DNA from: Lama guanicoe
Lineage: Eukaryota
Assembly (NCBI GenBank): GCA_013239625.1
Contig: MU053652.1
Span: 3,162,828-3,182,827, forward strand
Direction of reading: 5' to 3'
DNA: 20,000 nucleotides
This document shows, in pieces, positions 1,674-20,000 of this stretch. The notes below the pieces were generated by a model, which did no database searches, had not been told where the DNA came from, and saw only the letters and a list, made by a program, of their open reading frames with translations. Both the position numbers and the translations under genes were made by a program. Numbering within the stretch: the first letter of the stretch is position 1; the number at the start of each line of letters is the position of its first letter.

Positions 1674-2437
1674 GTACTGATACCCAGAATGAAAGACATA
1701 TGATTGTGGGTACATTACCACTTGAGCTCGTAAATGTCTGGACAAGTATTTGAGGTTCAAGAATTTGTTTTCCAGAATTAAATGTAATGATAATGATGGT
1801 ATATTTATATTTATAAAATTAATTACTGCTATAGATATACTAATTTTATAACTAATTCTCTGAGTAAAATATGCTGGACATTTAATCTTAAAAGAGAAAC
1901 TGAATGTATACAGTGGTAGCCCAAAAAGGAATTCAGACTTTCTGTTGAAACAGTGTGACCACTGGTTCATGTAGCTGATGTCTCCTTGAAGGATCATGGC
2001 CTCCTTCTCCCTGATGTTTCTTTCCAGGGCATCTTGGGGATTTTTTACTTAGTAGATCCATGGCATCTGAAAATGTATTTTTTTTAAGGGTCCTGTAGCC
2101 CAAGGCTGGCGTCTTAGTATGTCTCAGCCCAGTAAGTGGCTTAGCCAACAACTGGGTGTCCACATTTGAGAAAGGCTTTGTAATTCTCTACTTGACCTGT
2201 ATGCACTGTATGCAGTCTTAGGGGTGGGGGATGGGGGTCAGGGGAGGCCTGTGAAGGAGAACCAACTGCTAGTGCCAACAGTATTTACAAATTTGGGGAT
2301 TTGAGACCTTCTGACATATCTCTTCTGAATGTCAAGTATTTGTTGTACTTGCTTTCCTCCTTTTCCTTTGTGAGTTCTTTTCTTCCCAGATTCACTGCAG
2401 AATATTCACAACTGCTAACCAGTTTACTCAGAAATAA

Positions 2438-2610
2438 GCACACACATCACACTTAACATTTTAAACAATTTTTATTACTAGTACAGGAAAAACAATTTTT
2501 ACTGTTAATACAGGAAAAAAACAAAGTAACAAATAGTGGGGAAGTTACAGAGTTACAAGAAATCATAAAAGTACTAGTCAATAGTTGTCCCTGGTCATCA
2601 CTGAGTTACA
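2438..2610 (-). terminator. Antisense (minus-strand) cleavage/polyadenylation site
   Basis: Minus-strand AATAAA (+ TTTATT 2471-2476) and variant AGTAAA (+ TTTACT 2498-2503). Five upstream TGTA motifs (+ TACA at 2482, 2509, 2546, 2554, 2607). GU-rich downstream element GTGTGATGTGTGTGC (2452-2438) about 19 nt after the hexamer. Confidence 0.6.
2464..2517. repeat. 27-bp imperfect tandem duplication carrying the poly(A) hexamers
   Basis: aacaatttttattactagtacaggaaa (2464-2490) followed directly by aacaatttttactgttaatacaggaaa (2491-2517). Confidence 0.8.
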
Positions 2611-4147
2611 TTTGGGGCTTAACCTGTCTTCTCTTAGCCCCTCTCCCAACCCCCTTTTTAGCTGTTGGTTCTGGGAGCCCCTGTCCAGTCTCATCTGTGT
2701 TGGATGATAGACCAGGCTACTCACTCTAGCACGAGGTAGATTCAAGTTGGCACCATTGCTGGGTCTGAATCCCAGGTTGTTCCCTCTGGCCCTGGGTGGA
2801 CCTGCACTTGCAGCCACCCTGGATCCATAACCCCCTGGGTAGGAAGGCACTTTTCTATCTGGCCTCCAGTATTTCTCCTTCAAGCATTAGGCATCCAACT
2901 TTAACCTTTAATTACCTCCTTTATCCCTTTATGAGGTTTCTCTAGTTCCGTTCCCTTTTAGCTACACTTTCTTTCCTGGTCTGTTTTCCTCTGGTTAGAC
3001 TCATTTAAAATATGTCCACCAGCCAGTAATTAAGCTGGCTGTACTCTTTAGTAAAGCTAGTTTTATTTAGCCTTGTTCTAAACCAGTATCTGGGCCCAGT
3101 CTTAATGTAGCCCTGTGGCTTCTGCCATCATCCTGGGCGATTCCACATTTTTTTAGTTTTTTCCAGTAGCCACCCACCTCTCCTTATTTCACAATTCTTC
3201 CCCCATTGTACTTCTTACTAAGTTTCTTTTTCTTAAGGGATGCCATTCCTTTGCCACTTAATTTCAGAGGGAAGCAAAATGCTGAACTCATTGAAGAATC
3301 AAGCTTTTCCCAATTGAGAATACTAGCTCCTCCCATTTCCCCAGGTTCACTTGGATAACTGATAACTCAGGTGCCTCACATCCCAAGGAGTGGTCCTAAC
3401 AGAATACAATAAATACAGTTTTACAATATCAAAATACGTAAAACAACAATATTGAAATTACAGAAGTTACATATAGTACAGGAGAAAACAACAACAACAG
3501 AAAACATTTCTACCAAGACAAAATATAGGGGCGGTTTCTTAGACCTCCTTACTAAGGAGTTAATTTCTTTTTAAAATATAGATCTTACAAATTAGCCCAG
3601 AGGTTTCAACTTTTGGTCTGCTGGCTATGGGCGCTTTTGCTTGATGGTTGTTAGTATTTTGTTTGTAAAAATTTGACATTTGGAGAATTTTCTTTCTTTT
3701 CTGTTAAATTTAAAGGATTTGCTGATTGGTGTTAAAACTTAGTTGTAAATTTGTCTTTGTATCTTGGAGAGAAGAAATGGAATTCTGTCTCAACATTTGG
3801 ACTTTTAAAACTTTGTTAGTAGTCAATTTATATTTGACCCATCACGTGCCTGCTTTAAAAAAAAAATCCTTTCTATTCTTTAGTCTTTGTTAGAAACTAA
3901 AATTTTTCATCCATGGCCAATCCAAAGTCTTTGCTGTACAGTGAACAGAAGTGAAACACCAGGGTCTAGGTGGTACTAAGAGTCTTTTACCCATTCCTTC
4001 TTTTCTGCATTTTCCCACTGTAGATATGTTGAATTTCACCAATCACCTGAAGATATATACATCACCGCTACTCGTCTTATCTCAGAAAATATATTTTCCA
4101 TATAATTACAGAAAAAAAAATTCTGGAGACTGTGATTTCCTTCAACT

Positions 4148-4350
4148 GTATAGAATAGAAAGGAGTCTAGGTTTTGAAGATAGATTGGGATTTGAATTCT
4201 GACTCTGCTACACACTGACTGTAATCTTGGACAAATTATTTGATCTCTGTAGGCCTTTTAGGATTGTCAGAGGGATAAAATGAAATTAAGTAAAGTGATT
4301 AGTGTGGTGCCAGATACATAGTAAATACTTAATAGATAGAAGCTATTATT
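4148..4350 (+). mobile_element. MIR-family SINE, degenerate
   Basis: MIR-like segments: ggatttgaattctgactctgctac, gtaatcttggacaaattatttgatctctg, ggattgtcagagggataaaatgaa, and a 3' end gtgccagatacatagtaaatacttaatagatagaagctattatt. Confidence 0.8.
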
Positions 4351-4399
4351 GTTTCAGTTCTGAAACTATCCACTCTCTCCCTTTATCTTCTTTAAAATC

Positions 4400-6449
4400 A
4401 AGTCTCTCACAGTTCAAAAGACACACACTGGCCAGTCTCCCCCAGAAAGCTGTTCCAGCAATTGTTCTTATCTTTGCTGTATCTTTAAACTTGCTCACTC
4501 CTCCTACTTTATAAGTGTCAAAAAAATCTACGCCATCTGAAAAAAATCTACTCTAACTCAACATCAAGATATTACCATAACTCTGTCCGTCAAATCTTGG
4601 GCAATTTGTGGAAAGAGTAATCACCTTCATAAGTCTCAATTCAGTTAGTCCTACTTACTCTTTTCTGTCCTCCATAATTACTCTTCACTCAAATTTGTAG
4701 AAAAGCCTTCAAGGCAGCATGCCTTCTTCATGTCCTTTCTCATCCAGCAACTTTCTTTCCTCTGAATATTTATTATACTAGTAATAACATACATATATGC
4801 AACATTCTACAAATTTTTCCCTGCTTTGGACCTCTATAATGACCCTACCTACTTAACTTTTTGTTTTATTATGTCGTATTTCTCATCTTAAAGCATTTCA
4901 ACAAATTTACATAACTCACTTAAAAGGTCTTTAATATCAAATATCCATACTAAGATCAAGTTTAACAGTGATGTATGAGTCTTTTTCTGGTTTTCATTAG
5001 GGAGGCTGCCTCCCATTTAACAATCCATAACTTTCGCATATGCTTCAGTTCTCAACTTTCTGCCTTGAGCTACCACGGGATTCTGACGGACTCCAGACTC
5101 TTCTCTGAATCTGCAGTCTCCATTCTATTATTTGTGGTTCAGTATCAACTGTATTAACTCCTGACATTCTGACATTAAATCCACAGCTTCAATTAAGTAA
5201 CATTTCTGTTTTTTACTTTGACTCACCTCCAACCACTCACTGGGATCCACACTAATGACCCTTGATGAAACTCTGCATTCTTCTTAGCTAAGCACATAAT
5301 CTCAATTTTTACTCAAAGCCTATAAAAGCAGGATAAGTTGAATATAACTGTTCAACCACCGTGTCCCCTATCAATCACTAGAATTTATATCAGTCTAGCC
5401 GTAAAATCAGTTTTCCTCCAATTTGACCGATTATGAGATTGGCCAAGACTTCCAGTTTGAGATCTCATTCACCCTGTTCATTCATTTCATAAGCCGTCTC
5501 CCTTTCCTCAAACACACTGAAATGTCTAACTTTCCCTCTATACTTACTTTCAGTCTGATTTCTATCCTATTTCATGTTTCCGTTTCACACCATCAGCATC
5601 AGTAAATGTAATCTTTATTGCTCCTTTTCTTAAGTGATAGCATCTCTCCAGAATGCAGTGTAAACATGGCATATCCACTCATTTCCTCTTTTTCCCTCTT
5701 GACCTTAGGGAAAAACCCTCTGCTTGGTTCACCCAGGCTTGGTTCACAACCTGAGCTTTTAAATAGATTCAGTATGTGAAAATGTGTGAACTTCCTCCTT
5801 GACTTACTGTTACTATTCCAAACGATACCACTGTAATGCGTGCATCTTCATCTTTGGATGTCAGTGTTACCAATGTCATGAGGTTGCTGCTGGCGCTCTC
5901 CCTTCAGATTTCATTTTATGAATTTACCTCCATATGACCATTTATTCTCCTGAATCTACCCACTCTGACGTAATTATCTGATGGATTTTTTCCGGCAGCC
6001 ACCAATTTGCCTGTGACAATTTCTTTTTATATATTTCTTCCATTTTCCTTTATGCCATTAATTGTGCTCAAGTTTAACACGCAGCACTATGCCTCGTAAC
6101 CATTATAATCCTCCTTAATAATTCCACGGATGATTTGTATCATTATATGTATACTCTCAACTTAATTCCAATTTCATTTTAACCATTTCTTTCCATTTTT
6201 CCTCTGCTCTTTTTCATTGGAAAAACATTAAACATATAAACACTACATCAACATCTGAAGAAGACTATTTTACCAGTGCTAAATACAATGCTTTCAAAGC
6301 TCAGCTGACTGCACCACACCACCTTTACTCTGTACTGGGCTGTGCTACAGCCTCTCCCTCTGTGAACATTCTGCGTCGTGTATCTTCCTAATAAAAGCAT
6401 GCTTGCCCACAGACATAGCAGATAGCACCTATGCTTTCTTATATTCACT
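4400..6449. repeat. Highly decayed, AT-rich edge portion of the same macrosatellite
   Basis: ggatccacactaatgacccttgatgaaactct at 5243 resembles the anchor and lies ~3.95 kb before 9197. ccagactcttctctgaatctgcagtc (~5093) resembles cccagtcctctcctcaacctgcagtc (~8986). catttcctctttttccctcttgaccttagggaaaaaccctct (~5680) resembles catttcttctctttccctccctggtccagggaaagcgccctct (~19674). The left boundary is uncertain. Confidence 0.6.
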
Positions 6450-9096
6450 AGTATGCACCTACTGTCTGATCTCAATACCACATATGCCCCACTCCTGTCC
6501 CTGAGATCTGCTGATGTCCCCAGATTGGGAGCCCTTCAGGCTGCCCTCGCCTTTTCTTTAGAGCCCCCTTTAACTACCCTGAGCCCTTCATACATTCATC
6601 AGGTTCTCCCCCTCTCCCATGATGCCTGTCCCTTTCTCCTCCCTTTGACTCCCCTGGCCCGTCTCAACGCTGGCCTGTCCCCTTCATGGCTGCTCAGGAA
6701 TCCAAGGTCTCTGCACACTGGGTGTGGACTGAGCCTTCCTTGGCCCATCGTCTACCTTTTCTCCCACTCCAGCCTTTGAGAGCCACTCTGCTTTACCTTC
6801 AGCATCTGATCCTACCTCCCCAACCACCTGCCAGTCATGTGACAGATATAGTGGTCTCTTCCTTGATATCTGCTCCCTTCTTGATCTGCCCTCACGCTCC
6901 CCTGTGAGCAGCTTCTTGGTCTGCAGGGTGCTGCATGAATCCATATGCTGTTCCAATTCACCCTTAAGCACACTATCTTTGCAGGTCCCCCATTTTGGAG
7001 ATGGTCATGGCCTCTCTGGGCTTGTCTCTGACCTTTCATCATTTCATCTTGTGTTGCCCTGCACTGACTGGGTTGTCTCCAATGTCTTCCATGAGTCAAT
7101 ACCTCTACCACCTGATCCTCCTCTAGCCTATTCCTACCCCAGCATGTTCCCCACTAGCCTTACTCCCATGCTATCCTCTGCCTCCTACATGGGCTTTGTC
7201 ATGGCCCACTCATGGGACAAAGCTCCTGGATCCTCCACATCCACTCCAACCTTCTGCCTCTTTGTTATCACCCTCTGTGCAGCACATTCCCTCATCTTCT
7301 CAACAAGCATCTCCTGTCCTAGCTGCAAGGTGCCTGCCCTTTCTCTTCTTACTGGACGACCACTTCTCCTCTACTTCCTGCTTCAGAATGCTCACCTGAT
7401 CACCTGCTTCCAGGCACAATTTCATCATCTCTCCTAATTTCGTTCTCTACTGCTTATGTTCCTGATCCGTGTGACATTCCGTGAGTCTTCCAGCTGGACT
7501 CAGTACTTTCCTGTGCTGTGTGCTCCCTTCTTGACCCCCCACCTTCTGCTCAGCCCAACTCCATCGTCCCTGCTTCAGACACACTGCACCGACCCTGCAC
7601 GCTCCGCCCCCAACCTCTGCTCATGAGCCAGGCTGCGCTGTCCTCCCAGGTCCCTGCAGCGTCACTCCTGAAACTTTCACGTTTCCATCCAGACCCCTTG
7701 TTGCACACTCTACTGATGCAGCTCTTGGGGAGCCCCTGCCTCTGATTCTCCTAGCTTTTTCCTTTCACCTTCTCACCCTCTTGCCCCCATGTCTGCCAGC
7801 TGCACTCCTGATGCCATCATACTCAGTCTGGACCCGCACAAAGCCCTGGGCACTGCTGTCCACCCTGCTTCTGCCCTTCTCCTGCCATGCAGTCACCTCT
7901 CTCCCAGAGCCTCTCCTGCACTGTCCCATCCCATCCACCCCTTCCTTTGGTGTGTATGTCCCCTCTGGTACCCTCTGCTCACATACACACAATCTATCTT
8001 CCTTTCAGCCACTACTTCTGTCTCCCTCAGCCTTACTCCACAAAACTCCTCAGCTCCAGGAACACCATGCTTGCAATCCACTCCCTACCGACTGACAGTA
8101 ATCCCAACCCACCACCCGTCATTCCAGGTGCCTTGTCGGCTACATTCATTTGCTCGCTGTCTGCTTGGTCCTGGGTCCTTTTCCTCCACGTCTCCCAGTC
8201 TTGACTCTGATGCCTGCATCTACCCCGACTCGGGCTTATCTGCTTATGTTCCCCTCCCTCCCCCTTCCACCCAGTGATTCTCCCCCAAGGATGCGTGGCC
8301 CCCAAGGCAAGCCTATCAATGTCATCTTTTCATCTTTCTTGTATTTTTGTGGTTTTACTCTGGGTTTTTGTTTTGAGCAAAGTACTGCACCCCAGATGTT
8401 TTGATAGGCCTCCCCTGGGGTGCATGCCTGCAGCTCCCACTCAGGTGAAATCCACACCCTGACCGTATCCCTGGGCAGAATCATCACAGTGTGACCCCCT
8501 GAGATACACTCTCCCCTTGAGCGCCTCTGGCCCCAACAGTTGCTAATGATGCTTTTTCCTAAAAAAAAAAAGAGACCCAAAACCCAGCATTTGCCCCACT
8601 CTGACTGCCCGGCACTGTCCTCTTGGAACCACCACATTCCCTTCAGTATTTACTCAGTGACACCCAACATCCCCCAAACTCCAGTCTGCATCAGAGCACT
8701 TTTCTTCTCAAGTCACCACACCCCAGACACTCCCCTGCCCCTCACCCTTTATGACTCTTAGGCATTATGACAGTACCTTTGGTGCAAACCTGTCGTTCTT
8801 CTTGGCGCTTGCCACTGTCCCTTTCCCTAGGTTACCCCTCCTCATTTCACACCCATGACACCGTCCCCCTTCAGAGCCCTGCCCCTGTCGTCCGCACGTT
8901 CCTCTGTGATTCCTGCTAAGCAGCCTTTCCCTTCCTCCTCTCCTGCAGCTGCTCTCTGTCCTCTCTGGGTGGATTCACTGGTCTTCCCAGTCCTCTCCTC
9001 AACCTGCAGTCATCACCCCAACACTGGACCTGCACTCAGTCCAGAAGCGCAGATAAAGATGCTTTTCTCAGTGTCTGGAGCTGGATCTCCCCCCCC

Positions 9097-9169
9097 NNNN
9101 NNNNNNNNNNNNNNNNNNNNNNNNNNNNNNNNNNNNNNNNNNNNNNNNNNNNNNNNNNNNNNNNNNNNN
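9097..9169. other. Assembly gap (73 N) within the poly-C-rich part of a monomer
   Basis: Run of N flanked by C tracts, at the position homologous to ~11880-11990. Confidence 0.97.
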
Positions 9170-9561
9170 ACCCCCACCTCCCCCCGCATCCCTAGCGGAT
9201 CCGTATTAAAGAGCCTGGCCAAAAAGTTCTACCCTTGCCACAACATTCAATGCTGTTAGCAGCAGCCACTGCTCCCCACCCACTACTAGCCACCCCTTTC
9301 CCACTCCTCCTTCCTCATGCCTCTGCCCGCCCTGGGTAGTCCCGAATCTCAAAAGTTCCTTCTGGTTGGCACTTCTGCCACTACGGCTACACTGCTAATT
9401 TTCTCCTCTCATTCCTTCTCCTCTTGGTCTCCAGCCTGTGTTCCTCCACTGTGCTCCACTCTCCATCCTGTCCTGGAGGCCTCTTATCACCTTCTCTGTG
9501 TCTGGGAGGTGACCTTCCTGTCCTGCTGCATCAAGGCCCCATTAGGACATTCTTTCCCACA

Positions 9562-10593
9562 ACCCTTCCTCATGTGACCCATTTCTTCCCTTTACCAACC
9601 TGGCCCAGGGAAAGCGCCCTCCTCTTCTCTAGGAACCATGATCTCAAAGCTCCCCAGTGCCCGTCATGGAGTAGAACGGGGTCATCCCTTCTCTGTCGGG
9701 GTGCTCCCTCCTTGGACCTGATCGCACACTCACACTCTTCCCTCCCCTGCCCTGCCACATCCTTTCCAGAACCATCTGCTGTCTCCTGTCAGGTTCTTCC
9801 ACTGGCTCAGGCCACTACCTCCCCTTTATCCTCAGGCTTCCTTATTCTCATCCTCACCTCATCTCACCCTCCTCCTCTTCTCTCTTCCCTTGTAATCAAG
9901 CCACTGCGCACAATTCTTTACACCAAGCGAGTGCTTCCTCCTCCTCTTCCTTTTCCTGGCCTCCACTGCTTCCAGCTCTCCTCCTTTGGGCCCGGGACGC
10001 ACCCCTGCCCATCAGCCTTGCGCTCCCACTCCCCGATGACATCCAGACCCCCCTTGGCCCTCCTTCTCTCTAGGCCACCATCCCCTCATGCACGGATTTT
10101 AAGACCCCACTCTCACGCTCCGTCCCATTCTGCCTTGCCCCCTCTGCTGTTCCCTGGATCCAGCCTCCCAAACAAGAGCCCCTGCTGCTCAAGCCCTCAC
10201 CGTCCTGCCCTCGGCTCGCTCCCTCTGTGCTGCCCCCATTACCTTCTCAGACGAGACCCCTGGCACCCCACTGGCTTCGGAGGTCCCCCTCCTCCCTCCT
10301 TCCCTGTGTGCAGCCCCCACCACATGCTGGACCTGCACCCTTCCCAACACCCCTGGAAGAGCAAAAGCTCAGTCAGTGATGGTTGGGCAATGTCAGCTCA
10401 GCCTGCTCCTCCCCCACTCCGCTGCCATTTGACGCACGTTTGCTGCCTGCACTCTGCACTGCAGCCACAGGAGCCCAGCCCAGATCCCTGAGGTTACCTG
10501 CCAGTGGCTTCTCTGTAGGGTCCGGCTTAATGTGCGGTGACACCCAGGTTCCTCAGTTTTAGCGCAGCCATTGGGTTTCCTTTCCCAGGTCTC
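9562..10593 (+). repeat. Near-identical duplicate of 12359-13390 (offset 2797)
   Basis: Direct comparison shows only isolated mismatches. The ORF track gives near-identical peptides (9570 vs 12367; C-terminal parts of 9424 vs 12050). The match ends exactly at the N gap. Confidence 0.95.
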
Positions 10594-10619
10594 NNNNNNN
10601 NNNNNNNNNNNNNNNNNNN
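10594..10619. other. Assembly gap (26 N), probably a collapsed repeat
   Basis: Run of N. The left flank matches up to 13390 and the right flank matches from 17918. Confidence 0.95.
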
Positions 10620-12361
10620 GAGCCCTGGACACTGCCTCTGCCCTCCTTCTCTTCCCTCCCGGGCTGTCATCTCTCTCCCAGATGCTCCCCTTCAGTGTTG
10701 TCCCGTCTCTTCCACCCCTTCCTTTGCTGTGTACATCCCCTGTGGTGCCCTGCGCTCACGTGTGCACACCTAGCTTCCTTTCAGTTGCCACTCCCATCTC
10801 TCAGCCTTATATCACAAGCATCCTCAGCTCTGGGACCGAAAAGTTGGCACTTCACTCCTGGTCCATTGACGCTAATACAAGCCCACCCCCCATCATTCCA
10901 GAGGCCCTGTTGGCTACATCCATTTGCTCGCTGTCTGCCTGGTCCTGAGTCCTTTTCCTCCACGTCTCCCAGTCTTGACTCTGATGCCTGCATCTGCCCC
11001 CACTCAGCGGCTCACCTGCTCGTGCCCCCCCCCCAACTGCCCAGCTCTCCACCTTGCCCCCCCCCCCAGTGATTCTCACCCGAGGATGCATGACCCCCAA
11101 GGCTGGCCTATCAACATCACCTTTCAGGAATGTTTTTGTGTTTTCTGTTTGGATTTTTTTGGTTTTGTTTTTGTTTTGAGCAGAGCACTGCTCACCCTCA
11201 GATGTGTTGCTAGGCCTCCCTTGGGGTCCATGCCCACAGCCCTCCCTCGGGTGAAATTCACCCCCCCCCCTCGGGAAGAATCACTGCTGTGCACCACCAG
11301 CCTGCCCCCCTGGGCTGCCCTCTCCCCTTGCCCGCCCCTGGCTTCCAGCAGTTGCCACTGACATTTGTTCCTCAAAGATCCCAGCGCGGAGCCCACTCTT
11401 ACACTGCCCGGCACTGTCCTCTTGAACCACCACATGGCCTTTCATATCTACTCTCTGGCACTCAACATGCCCCAAACCCCAGTCTGCATTAGAACACCAT
11501 TCCTTTCACATACTCCTTCTGCCTCCCCCATCCTTTAAGACTCTCAGGCATTGGTACAATATCTTTGGTCCAAATCTGGTCCATCTTGGCACTTGCCATT
11601 GTCCCTTTTTCTGCTTTACCCTCCTCATATCAGACCCGTAACACCGTCCCCCTGCAGAGCCCTGCCCCTGTCGTCCTCACGTTCCTCTGTGATTCCCGCC
11701 AAGCAGACCTTGCCCATCCTCCTCTCCTGCAGCTACTCTCCTCTGTCCTCTCTGGGTGGATTCACTGGTCTTCCCAGTCCTCTCCTCAACCTGCAGTCAT
11801 CACCCCAACACTGGACCTGCACTCAGTCCAGAAGCGCAGCTAAAGATGCTTTTCTTAGTGCCTGGAGATTGGCTCATGCCCCAACCCACCACCTCACACC
11901 CACACCCGTTAATCCCAACCCTGCCCTCCCAGCCAACCCAGCCAAAGCCCGCCCTAACCCATTCCTCTCCCCTTTACCCCATTCCCAGTCCATTCCCAGC
12001 GGATCCATATTAAAGAGCCTGGCCAAAAAGTTCTACCCTCCCCACAACATTGGACGCTCTTAGGAGCAGCCACCGCTCCCACCCACTACTAGCCACCCCT
12101 TTCCACTCCTCCTTCCTCATGCCTCTGCTCCCCCTGGTTAGTCCCGAATCTCTGAAGTTCCTTCTGGTTGGCACCTCTGAGATCTGCCTGGATTCCCACC
12201 TGCCACCTCCCTCTCCTCATTCCTTCCCCTGTTGGTGTCCAGCCTGTCTCCCTTCCACTGCGCTCCACTCTCCACCCTCCCCTGGGTGCCTCCTGCCAGA
12301 GACAGGTGACCCTCCCGTCATGCCACATCAAGGCTCCACTTGGACATTCCTTCCTGAGACC
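10620..12361 (+). repeat. Near-identical duplicate of 17918-19658 (offset 7297-7298)
   Basis: Identical ORF translations (11124/18421, 11551/18848, 11756/19053). The only difference I saw is a 1-nt poly-C length change near 11025. The match starts exactly after the N gap. Confidence 0.95.
11133..11180 (+). repeat. T/GT-rich low-complexity tract in the monomer (copies at ~8343-8378 and ~18430-18477)
   Basis: tttttgtgttttctgtttggatttttttggttttgtttttgttttgagc, which is A-rich on the minus strand. Confidence 0.8.
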
Positions 12362-15300
12362 CTTCCTCATGCGACCCATTTCTTCCCTTTACCAACCTGG
12401 CCCAGGGAAAGCGCCCTCCTCTTCTCTAGGAACCATGATCTCAAAGCTCCCCAGTGCCCGTCATGGAGTAGAACGGGGTCATCCCTTCTCTGTCGGGGTG
12501 CTCCCTCCTTGGACCTGATCGCACACTCACACTCTTCCCTCCCCTGCCCTGCCACATCCTTTCCAGAACCATCTGCTGTCTCCTGTCAGGTTCTTCCACT
12601 GGCTCAGGCCACTACCTCCCCTTTATCCTCAGGCTTCCTTATTCTCATCCTCACCTCATCTCACCCTCCTCCTCTTCTCTCTTCCCTTGTAATCAAGCCA
12701 CTGCGCACAATTCTTTACACCAAGCGAGTGCTTCCTCCTCCTCTTCCTTTTCCTGGCCTCCACTGCTTCCAGCTCTCCTCCTTTGGGCCCGGGACGCACC
12801 CCTGCCCATCAGCCTTGCGCTCCCACTCCCCGATGACATCCAGACCCCCCTTTGCCCTCCTTCTCTCTAGGCCACCATCCCCTCATGCACGGATTTTAAG
12901 ACCCCACTCTCACGCTCCGTCCCATTCTGCCTTGCCCCCTCTGCTGTTCCCTGGATCCAGCCTCCCAAACAAGAGCCCCTGCTGCTCAAGCCCTCACCGT
13001 CCTGCCCTCGGCTCGCTCCCTCTGTGCTGCCCCCATTACCTTCTCAGACGAGACCCCTGGCACCCCACTGGCTTCGGAGGTCCCCCTCCTCCCTCCTTCC
13101 CTGTGTGCAGCCCCCACCACATGCTGGACCTGCACCCTTCCCAACACCCCTGGAAGAGCAAAAGCTCAGTCAGTGATGGTTGGGCAATGTCAGCTCAGCC
13201 TGCTCCTCCCCCACTCCGCTGCCATTTGACGCACGTTTGCTGCCTGCACTCTGCACTGCAGCCACAGGAGCCCAGCCCAGATCCCTGAGGTTACCTGCCA
13301 GTGGCTTCTCTGTAGGGTCCGGCTTAATGTGCGGTGACACCCAGGTTCCTCAGTTTTAGCGCAGCCATTGGGTTTCCTTTCCCAGGTCTCGCGATGCTCC
13401 GGCTATGAGGTCTCACCTCTGCACTGCAGCTCCTGGCCGGTCTCAGTACCGCACGTACCCCCTCCCCCTGACATCTGCCGAAGTCCCACATTGAGGGCTC
13501 TTCAGGCTGCCTTCCCCCTTCCACGGTGCCCCCTTCACTGACCCTGGGCCCCTCAGGCATTCCTAAGGCTCTCTCCCTTCTTCTGTGATTCCTGTCCCCG
13601 GTCTCGTCCCTTCTGCCCCCTGAGCAGTGCCCCTACCACCTGTCAGTCATGAGAAGGATGCAGCGTTCTTTTCCTTGACCGGCCCTCATGCTCCTGGGAG
13701 GGCCAGCTTCCCTGTCCGCAGTGTCCTGTACTGAGTCCATCTGCCATCCAGATTTCCCCCTAAGCGCCCTAACCTTGCCGAGTCCGCCAGACGGGAGAAG
13801 GTCACTGCTTCTCCGGCCTTCTCTATGACCTTTCCTCTCGCCGTGCCCTGTCTCCAACATTTTCGATCGCCACTACCTCTAGGACCTCGTTCTCCTCTGG
13901 CCTCACCCCGCCTCTCCCGAGTTCCTCGCGTGCCTCACCTGCGCTGTGCTCCTCCTCCTGCCCACGTGGGCTTCCTCTCCCCTTTCCTGCCCCCTCGGGG
14001 GCAGGGACCCTGGATTCTCCACATCCACTCTCTCCTGTGTGTTCCCTGATGCCCTCCACAGGCCTTTCCTTGCCCGGCGCCATCGCCTGCCCCTCCTCCC
14101 TCTCCTGGCCCGTTGGACCACCTCTCGTCCACCACACTCTCCTCCACCACACTCTCCCAGTTGTTCGAGGCCGCTCACCTGGTCACCTACATCCTCGGCC
14201 CGCTTTCAGGGTCTCTCCTGCTCTCGCGCTACTGCACACATAGCAAAGGAACTGTGCTGCCTGATCCGTGTGACATTCTTGCAGCTACCGTCTGTCACTC
14301 TTCCAGCTGGACTCAGTACTTTCCTGTGCTGCGTGCTCCCTTCTTGACCCCCCCACCCCCACCTTCCGCTCAGCCCAGCTCCATCATCTCTGCTTCAGAC
14401 CCACTGCACCGACCCTGCACGCTCCGCCCCCGACCCCGGCTCACGAGCCAGGCTGCGCTCTCCTCCCAGGTCCCCGCGGTGTTGCTCCTGTAACTCTCAC
14501 GTTTCCATCCAGACCCCTCGTTGCACGCTCTCCTGACCCAGCTCTCGGGAAACCCCTGCCTGATTCCCCTTTTTCCTTTCACCTTCTTCTCACCTCCTTG
14601 CCCCCACACCTGGCAGCCCCACTCCCGACACCAGCACACTGAGTCTGGACCCGCACAGAGCCCTGGGCACCGCTGTCCGCCCTCCTTCTCTCCTCCTCCC
14701 TCCGATTGCTCCTCTCTCCCCCACAGCCTCTCCTGCACTCTTGTGTCCCATCTCTTCTCATGCCCACACCCCTCCTATCCCGCACACTTCATGACTCAGG
14801 CAGGTGACAATATCTTTGGTCTAATTCTCTTTCTAGGTGCTTGTCACTGTCCCTTTCAAAAGTTTACCCCTCCTCATTCAGCTCTGTGACACCTTGTGGT
14901 CGTACTGTCCAGCTGTGTCTCCTGACAGACAGGTGTTTCCCTTCTGCCTTCCCTGCAGCCCCTCTCCCTTGTCCTCTCTGGGTGGATTCAGTGGTCTCAC
15001 CCTCCCTCTTCTCAACGTAGTCATCACCCCCAGCACTGGACTCGCAATCATTCCATAAGCTCAAAGTAGATGATTTTCTCAGTGCCTGGAGCTCCTTCTC
15101 CCTTCCCCACCATCCCCACTGATCCCAACCCTGCCCTCACATCCAATCCAGTCAAACTCAGTTTGTACCCCAATCCTGAACCCTGTCCCAAACCACACCC
15201 CACCCTGGATCCATATTAAAGAGCCTGGCCAAAAAGTTCTACCCCTGCCACAATATTCCAGGTTGTAGCAGCAGCCACTGCTCCCACCCGCTGCTAGCCA

Positions 15301-18300
15301 CCCCTTTCCCACTCTTCCTTCCTCATGCCTCTGCTCCCCCTGGCTGGTCCCGAACCTCTGAAGTTCCTTCTGGTTGGCACCTCTGAGACCTGCCTGGATT
15401 CCTACCTGCCACCTCCCTCTTCTCATTGCTCCCCCTGTTGTTGTCCAGCCTGTCTCCCTTCCACCGCGCTCCAGTCTCCCATCACCTGGGTGCCTCCCAT
15501 CACCTGTCTTCTGGCAGGTGACCCTCCCGTCATGCCACATCAAGGCTCCACGTGAACATTCCTTCCTGAGACCCTTTCTCATGCAACCCACTTCTTCCCT
15601 TTCCCTCCCTGTCCAGGGAAAGCGCCCTCCCTCCTCTTCTCTAGGAACCATGATCTCAAAGCTCCCCAGTGCCCGTCATTAAGTTGCACGGGGTCATCCC
15701 TTCTCTTGTCGGGGTGCTCCCTCCTTGGACCTGCTCTCACGCTCACACTCTTTCCTCCCCTTCCCTGCCACATCCTTTCCAGAACCATCTGCTGTCTCCT
15801 ATCCAGCATTTACACTGACTCGGGCCACCACTTCCCTTTAGACTCCCTTTTCTTCTCCCTGCCTCTCCTTCCATCTTCTGTTGTTGTCTCTAATCAAGCC
15901 TTTGCCCTCAGGGCTTTATCTAGCTCACACTTCCTCCCCCTCTCTTATCCCATGCCTCCACGGCTTCTGTTTCACCTCCATCAGCCTTTAAGAAGCACCC
16001 TTGCCAACTGTCCTACGCCTCCCACTCCCTGATGATGCAGTCCTGATCCTCACTTTGCCCCCTTTCCGTCTTGGCCATGCTCCCCTCACAAAACCCATGT
16101 GCAGGTTTTAAGACCCTCCTCTCACTCTCCATCCCATTCTGCCTGCCCCCTCTGTAGTCCATCAGCTCCAGCCTCCCGACCCACAGACCCCCTTCTCCCA
16201 CGGCCCCGCCCTCCCACTGCGTGCTCTCTCCCTCGGCCACTTTGCTGCCCACATTACCTTCTCGGACTAGACCTCTGACACCCCAGGGATTGTGTTGGTC
16301 CCCCTCTTTCCCAGCTTCCCTGTGTGGAGTCTCCAGCACACGTTAGACCTCCACTCTTTGCAACCCCCCTGGAATAGCAGATGCATGAATTCAGTGATCG
16401 TTGCAAACTGTCACCTCTGCCTCGATTCCTGCTCACTCCTCCACTTCTAAGCATATCTGCTGCCCACCCGCTGGACTCCATCCGCATGCGTCCATACCCA
16501 GGTCCGAGATTACCTGCCAGTGGTTTCTGTGCAGGATCCATCTGAATGTGGCACACGGCCCTGTTCCCTCAGACTCACCCCGTCACTGGGTCCCCTTTCC
16601 CTGCGTGCTCCTGAGGGCCCCAGGCATTCAAACACCGAGGCCTGGGGTCTCTGCTCTGCTGTCTAGCCTCAGTACCGCATAAGCCTGTCCTCTGGCCCCT
16701 CAAGGTCGGCCGACAGCCCCAGACTGGGAGCTCTGCGTGTGGCCTTCCCCTTTTCCGCGGTGCCTCCTTGACTGTGCCTGAGCCCGAGGACCTGCATGAG
16801 CTTTTCTCCCCTCTTCCGTCCCTTTCTCTTCCCGCATGACTCGCTCCTGGGGACCACCATCTCACGGCTGCTCCAGACTCCACGAACTCCCTTTTCCTAC
16901 TCTGGGTGTGGACTTGGACTGAGCCTTACTAGGCCCATCCTACCTTTTTCTTACACTCGTGTGTTTGGGAGCCCCTCTGCTCCATCTTCCACTGCTTCCC
17001 TGCCGCCTCTGCCAGTCACGCGACAGAGTCAGCGGTCCTTCCTTACATCTTCCCTTCTTGCCCTGCACTCATGCTTCCTCCGTTGCCATTCTCTCCATCC
17101 CAGTGTCCTGCCCTAAATCCGCAGCTGTCCCAAGTCACACCCAAGCACCCTTCCTTTTCTGGTCCACCATTTTGGAGATGGTCATTGCTTCTCTGGGCTT
17201 TTCTCTGACTTTCCATCATCTCATCCCACCATCCCAGGTTCCCTGCTGGCCTTACCCACATGGTGCTCTGCCTCCTGCATGGGGTTTGCCACAACTGTGG
17301 CCCACTTTTGGAGGCAGAACGTCTGTATTCTCCATATCCACTTCTCCTTCAGGCTCTCTGTAATCCCTCTCTCGATGCAGTACACACTCTGATCCTCTCA
17401 ACAAGCCTCTCATTCTTTAGCTGCAAGGGCCCATCACCTGCCCATCCTCCCCCCGGACCACCTCTCCTCTGCCACACTCCCCCAGGTGGAGACGGCTCCC
17501 CTGATCTGCATCCTGGCTCCTGCTTTGCCTCTCTTTCACATGCAGCACTTTCAGCTACTGTCTGTGAATCTTCCGGCCGGATTCAGCCCTCTTCTCTGCC
17601 GCCTCCTCCCTGCTCATTCTCCCATCCGCTGCTCAGCCCAGTTCGGTCATCTTTGCTTCAGACACACTAGACTGAATCCAGGCTCCGCCCACCAGCCCGT
17701 GCTCGTGTCCTGTGAACCCAGGCTATGCTTCCTCCAGGCCCCGCCACATAACCTTTCATGTTTCCATTCAGACCCCTCTGTTTCACACTCTTCGAGCACA
17801 GCTCTTGGGGAACCCTTCCCCTGATTCTCCGGCCTTTATTCCTTTCATCACAGCACTTTTGCCTTTTGCCCTCCCCCTCTTGCCTCCTCACCTGCCAACC
17901 CCCACATCCCCTCCACAGAGCCCTGGACACTGCCTCTGCCCTCCTTCTCTTCCCTCCCGGGCTGTCATCTCTCTCCCAGATGCTCCCCTTCAGTGTTGTC
18001 CCGTCTCTTCCACCCCTTCCTTTGCTGTGTACATCCCCTGTGGTGCCCTGCGCTCACGTGTGCACACCTAGCTTCCTTTCAGTTGCCACTCCCATCTCTC
18101 AGCCTTATATCACAAGCATCCTCAGCTCTGGGACCGAAAAGTTGGCACTTCACTCCTGGTCCATTGACGCTAATACAAGCCCACCCCCCATCATTCCAGA
18201 GGCCCTGTTGGCTACATCCATTTGCTCGCTGTCTGCCTGGTCCTGAGTCCTTTTCCTCCACGTCTCCCAGTCTTGACTCTGATGCCTGCATCTGCCCCCA

Positions 18301-20000
18301 CTCAGCGGCTCACCTGCTCGTGCCCCCCCCCAACTGCCCAGCTCTCCACCTTGCCCCCCCCCCCAGTGATTCTCACCCGAGGATGCATGACCCCCAAGGC
18401 TGGCCTATCAACATCACCTTTCAGGAATGTTTTTGTGTTTTCTGTTTGGATTTTTTTGGTTTTGTTTTTGTTTTGAGCAGAGCACTGCTCACCCTCAGAT
18501 GTGTTGCTAGGCCTCCCTTGGGGTCCATGCCCACAGCCCTCCCTCGGGTGAAATTCACCCCCCCCCCTCGGGAAGAATCACTGCTGTGCACCACCAGCCT
18601 GCCCCCCTGGGCTGCCCTCTCCCCTTGCCCGCCCCTGGCTTCCAGCAGTTGCCACTGACATTTGTTCCTCAAAGATCCCAGCGCGGAGCCCACTCTTACA
18701 CTGCCCGGCACTGTCCTCTTGAACCACCACATGGCCTTTCATATCTACTCTCTGGCACTCAACATGCCCCAAACCCCAGTCTGCATTAGAACACCATTCC
18801 TTTCACATACTCCTTCTGCCTCCCCCATCCTTTAAGACTCTCAGGCATTGGTACAATATCTTTGGTCCAAATCTGGTCCATCTTGGCACTTGCCATTGTC
18901 CCTTTTTCTGCTTTACCCTCCTCATATCAGACCCGTAACACCGTCCCCCTGCAGAGCCCTGCCCCTGTCGTCCTCACGTTCCTCTGTGATTCCCGCCAAG
19001 CAGACCTTGCCCATCCTCCTCTCCTGCAGCTACTCTCCTCTGTCCTCTCTGGGTGGATTCACTGGTCTTCCCAGTCCTCTCCTCAACCTGCAGTCATCAC
19101 CCCAACACTGGACCTGCACTCAGTCCAGAAGCGCAGCTAAAGATGCTTTTCTTAGTGCCTGGAGATTGGCTCATGCCCCAACCCACCACCTCACACCCAC
19201 ACCCGTTAATCCCAACCCTGCCCTCCCAGCCAACCCAGCCAAAGCCCGCCCTAACCCATTCCTCTCCCCTTTACCCCATTCCCAGTCCATTCCCAGCGGA
19301 TCCATATTAAAGAGCCTGGCCAAAAAGTTCTACCCTCCCCACAACATTGGACGCTCTTAGGAGCAGCCACCGCTCCCACCCACTACTAGCCACCCCTTTC
19401 CACTCCTCCTTCCTCATGCCTCTGCTCCCCCTGGTTAGTCCCGAATCTCTGAAGTTCCTTCTGGTTGGCACCTCTGAGATCTGCCTGGATTCCCACCTGC
19501 CACCTCCCTCTCCTCATTCCTTCCCCTGTTGGTGTCCAGCCTGTCTCCCTTCCACTGCGCTCCACTCTCCACCCTCCCCTGGGTGCCTCCTGCCAGAGAC
19601 AGGTGACCCTCCCGTCATGCCACATCAAGGCTCCACTTGGACATTCCTTCCTGAGACCATTCCTCGTGTGACCCATTTCTTCTCTTTCCCTCCCTGGTCC
19701 AGGGAAAGCGCCCTCTTCTTTAGGAAGCATTATCTCATCTCCGTGCTCCCTAATGCCTGTCACTGAGTTGCACTGGGTCACCCTGTCTCTGTAGGGCTGC
19801 TCCCTCCTTGGCCCTGCTGTCATGCTCACACTCTTTCCTCCCCTTCCCTGTTCTCCCTGAAATCATGGGCTGATTCTTCCACTGGGCCACTACCTCCCCT
19901 TTATCCTCAGGCTTCCTTATTCTCATCCTCACCTCATCTCACCCTCCTCCTCTTCTCTCTTCCCTTGTAATCAAGCCACTGCGCACAATTCTTTTCTTTA

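Follow-up and report, generated by a model that had tools for sequence, protein, structure and literature searches.

The MEST/COPG2 locus is a current model for antisense transcription tuning an imprinted gene, and the locus of Lama guanicoe raises the question of what a large tandem array of strand-asymmetric sequence is doing inside COPG2, in the intron that lies toward MEST. The window analyzed here is a stretch of 20,000 nucleotides of contig MU053652.1 (NCBI GenBank assembly GCA_013239625.1, positions 3,162,828 to 3,182,827, forward strand). Positions up to 20000 are window coordinates, and negative positions or positions above 20000 extend the same numbering along the contig, which was covered from -69999 to 100000. 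An initial annotation, made from the letters of the window, had proposed a large macrosatellite from 6450 to 20000 in an intron of an imprinted domain and had read it as a candidate module of an antisense long non-coding RNA (lncRNA). We have hardly any doubt that the array is real and that it is located in intron 20 of COPG2. Its role is stated here with more reserve: the array may take part in the interference between the two genes as a transcribed body, a reading that we hold tentatively.

Self-BLASTN and mapping with nhmmer profiles confirmed four head-to-tail units on the plus strand, running from 6454 to the end of the window, and the start given in the initial annotation proved correct to within 4–10 bases. 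The monomer has three parts, A, B, and C. Unit 1 (6454–10593) carries all of them (A 6460–7840, B 7842–9095, and C 9176–10585), unit 2 (10620–13390) is without A (B 10621–11902 and C 11979–13382), unit 3 (13425–16601) has a truncated B (A 13431–14657, B 14659–15093, and C 15188–16600), and unit 4 (16656–20000) is cut by the window end (A 16657–17916, B 17919–19199, and C 19276–19994). The unit lengths in the window are thus 4.1, 2.8, 3.2, and at least 3.3 kb, and the spacings of the repeat families are 2.8, 3.2, 4.1, and 7.3 kb. Unit pairs matched in self-BLASTN with E-values from 7e-27 to 0, and the strong matches were all on the plus strand. The array was invisible to Tandem Repeats Finder, for which the longest detectable period is 500. 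Two runs of N mark assembly gaps, one inside unit 1 (9097–9169) and one between units 1 and 2 (10594–10619). As the initial annotation had noticed, the array in the window is free of short and long interspersed nuclear elements (SINEs and LINEs): in the profile map, unit parts are separated by no more than 95 unassigned bases, no tRNA-like Rfam match occurs in the window, and searches of the own genome with B+C and with A gave no dispersed copies.

The array extends well past position 20000. A 100-kb nhmmer search placed the whole of it at 6454–51258 (44,805 bases), of which 15,858 bases in seven runs are N, leaving ~28.9 kb of real sequence. The 10 A, 13 B, and 9 C pieces are all on the plus strand and all within 6460–51258, with two marginal minus-strand B matches (E = 0.009) in the same search, and a profile search detected no decayed units in the array flanks. 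Directly after the window end begins an N run of 4084 bases (20001–24084), so that the window may stop at an assembly gap. Matches of a B+C query to the 2.05-Gb genome numbered 27, of which 19 belong to this locus, six to unplaced contigs of 259–880 bases, and two are weak, ~50-base matches; an A query gave 13 matches, 12 at the locus and one on an unplaced contig. One of the unplaced contigs (G000:C46089:1-462) shares just 70% identity with the B/C junction and may thus represent another diverged unit that is absent from the scaffold. The unit is not a dispersed repeat in this genome, in keeping with the initial annotation, in which the monomer was not recognized as a named repeat family. Same-orientation, head-to-tail units of 2.8–4.1 kb, well above 1 kb, in many copies at one locus make the array a macrosatellite. 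Furthermore, 14 DNA runs from five studies contain 93–95% of 799 sampled words of 10620–20000, although one of these runs may be the source of the assembly.

The placement in COPG2 was established from both sides of the array. Upstream of it, on the plus strand, lie coding exons at 266–328 (approximately residues 592–613; translation and tblastn with the full-length COPG2 protein P0027), 788–928 (approximately residues 613–659; Pfam COP-gamma_platf, E = 1.6e-21, and tblastn), and 1502–1675 (Pfam, E = 2.8e-13), the Pfam family of the latter two being PF08752, the coatomer gamma platform domain. The exon at 1502–1675, which precedes the large intron and which we take as exon 20, aligns to COPG1 residues 663–719 with 41 of 57 identities (hand count of the alignment) and is 90–95% identical to named coatomer gamma-2 proteins of many mammals (273 of 291 candidates, E <= 0.001). 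The tblastn search with P0027 located four further coding exons at 64080–66126 and sixteen upstream; because four coding exons (21–24) come after it, the intron from 1676 to ~64100 is intron 20, and the array occupies ~45 kb of its ~62 kb. Downstream, mir-335 (113 bits) and MESTIT1 regions 1–3 (113–250 bits) were found on the minus strand, all above the Rfam gathering scores, and MEST therefore faces COPG2 in convergent orientation, as it does in mouse and human. The placement in a COPG2 intron given in the initial annotation was right.

What is known of this locus in other mammals makes antisense transcription likely here. The accessible parts of three papers describe RNA in the MEST direction that crosses intron 20 in mouse, human, and pig (PMC3287194; PMC13691114; PMC12969872), in agreement with the statement of the initial annotation that such transcription enters the intron. 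In mouse, this RNA, MestXL, is described in the available text as paternal, neural, and nuclear-enriched, and it reduces paternal Copg2 (PMC13547231; PMC3287194; PMC13691114), and the pig hypothalamus is described in like portions of text as having both an antisense RNA and short COPG2 isoforms of paternal origin (PMC12969872). The arrangement of exon 20, large intron, exons 21–24, and convergent MEST with mir-335 is the same here as for MestXL of mouse and COPG2IT1/CIT1 of human and pig. MestXL ends ~720 bp from exon 20 according to the portion of the mouse report available (PMC13691114), which is similar to the ~800 bases between exon 20 and a predicted minus-strand poly(A) site in the window (2430–2476), where AATAAA (2476–2471) is followed by a GT-rich stretch. 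This is one of six AATAAA that a minus-strand RNA would meet on leaving the array, and poly(A) hexamers are nearly absent inside the array on both strands. A 27-bp unit repeated 2.1 times (2463–2519) lies exactly over the candidate poly(A) signal. Judging from this analogy, we think that the array is probably transcribed antisense in Lama guanicoe too. Three RNA runs from two studies contain 0.23–0.29 of the sampled words of the array as contigs, which carry no strand information. Two other RNA runs (X19 and X20), with 0.07 of the words, were not counted as evidence.

The composition of the array is strongly asymmetric, as first annotated. The plus strand of 6454–20000 consists of 40.0% C, 17.0% G, 15.8% A, and 27.3% T (67.2% pyrimidine), and, from 6001 onward, no 1-kb window has a GC skew outside the range of -0.30 to -0.48. 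In fact, a skew of -0.27 to -0.48 spans ~4.4–64 kb, that is, nearly all of intron 20; it ends at exon 21, on the MEST side values range from -0.2 to +0.19, and no comparable skew was found in the COPG2 introns of the 70 kb upstream (-0.05 to +0.135). The asymmetry sets purines against pyrimidines and differs from the excess of G+T that transcription-coupled mutation yields. The flanks of the array, 2 kb on the left and 12.7 kb on the right, are also skewed, with only 37–46% GC and without similarity to the units. The left flank at 4400–6453 has 25% C, 12.5% G, and 37.5% GC and shows no unit similarity in nhmmer; from 4380 to 6453 it is single-copy, as is the right flank over its initial 2.8 kb, and the remainder of that flank gave only a few short repeats in a search that skips very common words and that abundant transposons could escape.

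Read on the minus strand, this asymmetry has a direction. Over 10620–20000, G-cluster motifs of the kind from which the initiation of R-loops (RNA:DNA hybrids) is predicted occur 39 times on the minus strand and never on the plus strand; the counts are 26 and 0 at 41015–47448, and 5 and 0 in the 12.7-kb right flank. Windows of 100 nt with at least 40% G make up 55% (10620–20000) and 48% (41015–47448) of the minus strand, and the plus strand has none. With a skew of 0.3–0.48 and 39 motifs against none, the array has the composition of an R-loop repeat in the MEST direction only. Because the G clusters are confined to the minus strand, hybrids are predicted to be favored only when the array is read in that direction, and a one-way R-loop zone is a fair hypothesis from composition.

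We propose, by way of hypothesis, the following role for the array. A paternal MEST read-through RNA, as known from other mammals, would transcribe the whole array against COPG2, and most of the zone in which the two streams of polymerase meet would consist of the array. It would act in cis by being transcribed, not via a coded product. Reading in the COPG2 direction would yield ordinary C/U-rich intron RNA; reading in the MEST direction would yield a nascent RNA and a non-template strand with 40% G and dense G clusters, a composition that would favor R-loops and slow elongation. In this way, the array would lengthen and stiffen the interference zone of the paternal allele.

Several observations weigh against this proposal. 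The unit has not been kept intact, A being absent from unit 2 and B truncated in unit 3, and the accessible text of the mouse papers attributes the effect to transcription alone, with no repeat mentioned there. A minus-strand RNA coming from MEST would have to pass 14 AATAAA and 21 ATTAAA of the right flank on its way to the array. The words shared with RNA runs could stem from COPG2 pre-mRNA or from DNA carry-over. The suitability for G-quadruplexes claimed in the initial annotation comes down to base composition, since the minus strand has 8 canonical motifs against 9.5 +/- 2.8 in dinucleotide shuffles and 406 G runs against 389 +/- 10, and the G clusters for R-loop initiation were counted by a motif rule and not with a prediction tool. 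Finally, the skew looks inherited and decaying rather than maintained. It is read as inherited because recent substitutions lose C without a clear strand bias (51 C losses and 30 C gains among 116 polarized substitutions, with a distant outgroup and low power). Participation of the array as a transcribed body is held to be more likely than a specific R-loop effect, which we consider rather unlikely.

It is quite possible that the array is a neutral passenger, generated by unequal crossing-over in an intron that is long and tolerant and kept only because no deletion removes it, with a skew inherited from the pyrimidine-rich intron sequence and without any effect on COPG2 or MEST, and we regard this as nearly as likely as the interference reading. 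The skew extends over the whole intron, from ~4.4 to 64 kb, single-copy flanks included, the make-up of the units varies, motif counts match what composition predicts, and recent substitutions wear the skew down. The divergence among the old lineages, 21–37%, resembles free drift, and known functional elements were not found in the array. Pfam families were absent from the 47 scanned of the 60 open reading frames (ORFs) of at least 100 aa; the long plus-strand ORFs are many, but they overlap in all frames, and the coding reading was rejected. A search with the 424-aa ORF among proteins of 233–742 aa gave no match. There is no CpG island (observed/expected 0.2–0.47 in the array), and TGCCGC occurs 2 times against 3.5 expected, so that the CpG island with clustered TGCCGC of an imprinting control region repeat is lacking.

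The history of the copies can be read in part from their divergence. The identities among the old lineages are 63–73% for A, 74–79% for B, and 69–78% for C. On these lies a young layer in which C1 and C2 are 94% identical, 10620–12716 and 17918–19994 are 96.5% identical, a pairing that gives the 7.3-kb higher-order period, and several blocks are 99.9–100% identical. Unit 1 is an edge copy and the most diverged in A (63–69% to A4) and B (76% to B2); its C part, however, is the one that is 94% identical to C2. The B parts of units 2 and 4 (10620–11902 and 17918–19199) show zero differences over ~1283 bases, whereas 52 sites differ between the C parts next to them; the B identity may reflect either gene conversion with a sharp boundary or an assembly copy. 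Similarly, three A copies (16656–17917, 42765–44026, and 45773–47034) are 99.9–100% identical, two of them adjoin N runs, and the three could be genuine duplicates of recent date or artifacts of gap filling. The array is an old single-locus macrosatellite in which at least two waves of amplification multiplied the 4.1-kb A-B-C unit. A difference of 25–35% corresponds to 0.30–0.47 substitutions per site (Jukes-Cantor). The neutral rate of mammals is ~1–2e-9 per site per year. At this rate, the divergence of the lineages would mean many tens of millions of years.

Against a purely neutral history stands the strongly uneven conservation within the unit. Invariant columns among the four B lineages amount to 41.6% overall, yet they include a run of 56 columns ending at 9032, where 1000 column shuffles gave a mean of 7.8 and a maximum of 14, and the best window of 100 B columns has 86 invariant ones against a shuffle maximum of 64. 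The run is contained in a conserved core at the end of B on the plus strand (8967–9032), 66 nt that are identical at 8967, 11754, and 19051. At the start of C, all four units share, without a single difference, a plus-strand motif of 31 nt (9204–9234; copies at 9204, 12008, 15214, and 19305), which contains ATTAAA on that strand and recurs in translation in outside ORFs that are otherwise 37–50% alike; the first ~400 bases of C are also well conserved. This unevenness may reflect constraint or conversion, and the relatives found elsewhere favor some constraint. Pieces of the unit are kept in ruminant gene models. Mouse and human intron 20 are 80% identical according to the portion of PMC3287194 available. 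The scarcity of interspersed repeats across the intron points the same way, although this is a weak point given a search that skips very common words.

The initial annotation had suggested a search for an orthologous array in other mammals, and homologous pieces of the unit were found in other species. The 424-aa reading of C2 (P0004) was searched with phmmer against 1.84 billion representatives (E <= 0.001) and gave four matches: three unnamed ORFs from Logan contigs (39–50% identity) and one unrelated repeat protein. The latter (P0128, a protein from ENA), which aligns at 34% identity over 65 residues and has a tandem repeat structure of its own, was dismissed as a low-complexity or chance match. 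A profile search gave nine unnamed ORFs (eight from Logan and one from JGI). The translations of the outside ORFs retain the 31-nt motif, and the remainder is 27–48% alike. When P0126, P0125, and P0127 were compared with the Lama guanicoe genome, they matched the array only (6 of 6, 8 of 8, and 1 of 1 matches), with at most 51, 46, and 39% identity, respectively; with a best identity of at most 51%, none of the assembled copies can be their source, and because copies so diverged would assemble easily, the simplest reading is that the sources are other species. A metagenome locus found with P0132 (L019) was rejected, as it has balanced composition and no BLASTN similarity to the array.

In ruminants, the evidence comes from COPG2 gene models whose tails follow exon 20. 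The tail of the yak (Bos mutus) model P0051 matches the A unit at 27180–27386 and 14071–14169 with 33.1 bits, a score reached by none of 60 shuffles of this tail (mean 23.8, maximum 28.9). For the red deer, the tail of model P0047 matches two A units at equivalent positions (26781–26837 and 6780–6833) with 33.9 bits, again reached by none of 60 shuffles (mean 21.0, maximum 25.4). We therefore have moderate confidence that A-like sequence follows exon 20 in ruminants, as judged from short alignments to automatic gene models that do not imply an array. A tail of a pangolin gene model matched the A unit with only E = 0.05 and was not used. Since the yak and red deer models and the nine ORFs carry homologous pieces, the unit appears on sequence grounds to be older than this species.

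How much further back the array goes bears on mouse and human, in which the antisense RNA was studied. The accessible portion of PMC3287194 notes a gap in intron 20 of the mouse and human assemblies of that time, and the part available of a recent preprint states that a 50-kb gap of mm10 is closed in GRCm39, with no CTCF peak inside (bioRxiv 10.64898/2026.05.09.724006). Such gaps would fit a hard-to-assemble array in both species but do not prove one. A tandem array goes unmentioned in the available text of the literature on MestXL and COPG2IT1, which does note assembly gaps (mouse mm9/mm10 and human), and no paper describing the array was found in what is accessible of the literature on COPG2, intron 20, and COPG2IT1. 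If the array were an ancestral feature of placental mammals, the content of the intron-20 gaps of mouse and human, and the working part of MestXL/COPG2IT1, it would form a 45-kb one-way zone of R-loops and pausing, with a conserved core in each unit, that blocks paternal COPG2 and lets maternal sense transcription pass freely. We consider this wider view rather unlikely.

The consequences depend on the range of the array. That the overlapped intron may be mostly a strand-asymmetric tandem array is a point absent from the accessible text of the literature on MEST/COPG2. If it is common to mouse and human, the array explains why the intron resists assembly, it has consequences for probe design and the mapping of reads there, and it offers a deletable element with which to test whether interference depends on the transcribed content and not on transcription alone. 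Should it be limited to a few lineages, the array would be an intronic macrosatellite of the ordinary kind.

The lncRNA-module interpretation of the initial annotation is plausible but unproven. Its setting held up, namely the locus, the transcriptional context, and the homologous pieces; the analysis found no G-quadruplex motifs beyond composition, no conserved RNA structure, and no small RNA. One form of this interpretation is that the RNA serves as a scaffold, the G/A-rich minus-strand RNA or the C/U-rich sense intron binding hnRNP H/F, SR proteins, PCBP, hnRNPK, or PTB in the manner of Xist or Firre. Each RNA would carry many copies of the conserved core, its composition is extreme, and MestXL is nuclear-enriched in mouse in the part of PMC13547231 available; however, no motif is enriched beyond composition, no conserved structure was found (the best hairpin, z = -2.3, is not kept across lineages), and the kilobase units are mostly drifting, unlike the short and tightly kept modules of Xist and Firre. 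We judge a scaffold to be improbable.

It is somewhat more improbable still that the array is a known transposon-derived satellite or an artifact of assembly. Seven N runs and 100% identical blocks beside gaps do make parts of the assembly uncertain. Nevertheless, no dispersed copies occur in 2.05 Gb of the own genome and no remains of transposon proteins were detected, which is not what a transposon-derived satellite would leave; the gap-free 9.4 kb of 10620–20000 contain three and a half diverged units, and the sampled words recur in the DNA runs described above, with the same reservation on the source sample.

Very improbable as well is a trap for the COPG2 sense transcript, in which signals in the units would provide alternative terminal exons and short COPG2 isoforms. 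Each unit has on the plus strand a CTGCAG resembling a 3' splice site in the B core and an ATTAAA ~190 nt downstream, both in the most conserved part of the unit, and plus-strand ATTAAA occurs 3 times against 0.2 expected in 10620–20000. Paternal short COPG2 isoforms are described in the part of the pig study available (PMC12969872), and the yak and deer models splice exon 20 to A-unit-like sequence. These two models are automatic predictions, however, ATTAAA is not followed by a GU-rich element, and the short-isoform tails that could be mapped all lie upstream of the array. In the orca and pig models, the splice donor of exon 20 is read through into 1673–1845, and four of the six bear tails map to 3470–5262 (P0015 had no significant match, and P0026 was left out). 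Because the bear tails map to the left flank, this flank is common to different orders.

A host array for small RNAs, as in SNORD116/115, C19MC, or the Sfmbt2 miRNA cluster, is suggested only by the analogy of kilobase tandem units inside an imprinted non-coding transcription unit and is already largely refuted, as Rfam at E <= 1 gave one sub-threshold lncRNA match and no small nucleolar RNA (snoRNA) or microRNA (miRNA), the C/D-box scan gave no candidate on the plus strand and one minus-strand place that is not repeated per unit, the array has no inverted repeats, and its best hairpin is the one mentioned above.

Among known systems, DXZ4 and FIRRE have CTCF bound in every unit and are CpG-rich. 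The COPG2 array is similar to them in being locus-specific with kilobase units, and DXZ4 and FIRRE are transcribed and linked to allele-specific chromatin. Unlike them, it has no CTCF core within one mismatch and is poor in CpG, as given above. Immunoglobulin switch regions extend over kilobases, have a non-template strand rich in G, and form R-loops in one direction of transcription only, which reminds us of the one-way composition found here. Switch repeats, however, are units of 20–80 bp, and those of the COPG2 array are complex, measure 2.8–4.1 kb, and have no link to recombination. A further parallel is the Snord116 cluster, which in the accessible portion of PMC4169248 is likewise made of kilobase tandem units, in a paternal antisense unit that silences a convergent gene in neurons. 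In this cluster, part of Snrpn/Ube3a-ATS, paternal R-loops over the repeats affect the progress of polymerase, as the available text reports (Powell et al., 2013, via PMC4169248). Every unit of Snord116 includes a C/D snoRNA; no such RNA was found in the COPG2 array, whose R-loops are a prediction from composition.

A few minor observations concern the surroundings of the array. Some of the COPG2 models of dog, mole-rat, and yak (P0022, P0049, and P0051) are fused to PF14994, probably by run-on of the automatic annotation from the neighboring gene. In the intron to the left of the array, 4140–4340 looks by eye like a MIR element. Two tRNA-like Rfam matches were recorded at L014:4184-4256 (minus strand) and L018:7853-7924 (plus strand); the former lies, by eye, inside a tRNA-derived SINE, the sole clear SINE seen in the right flank of the intron.

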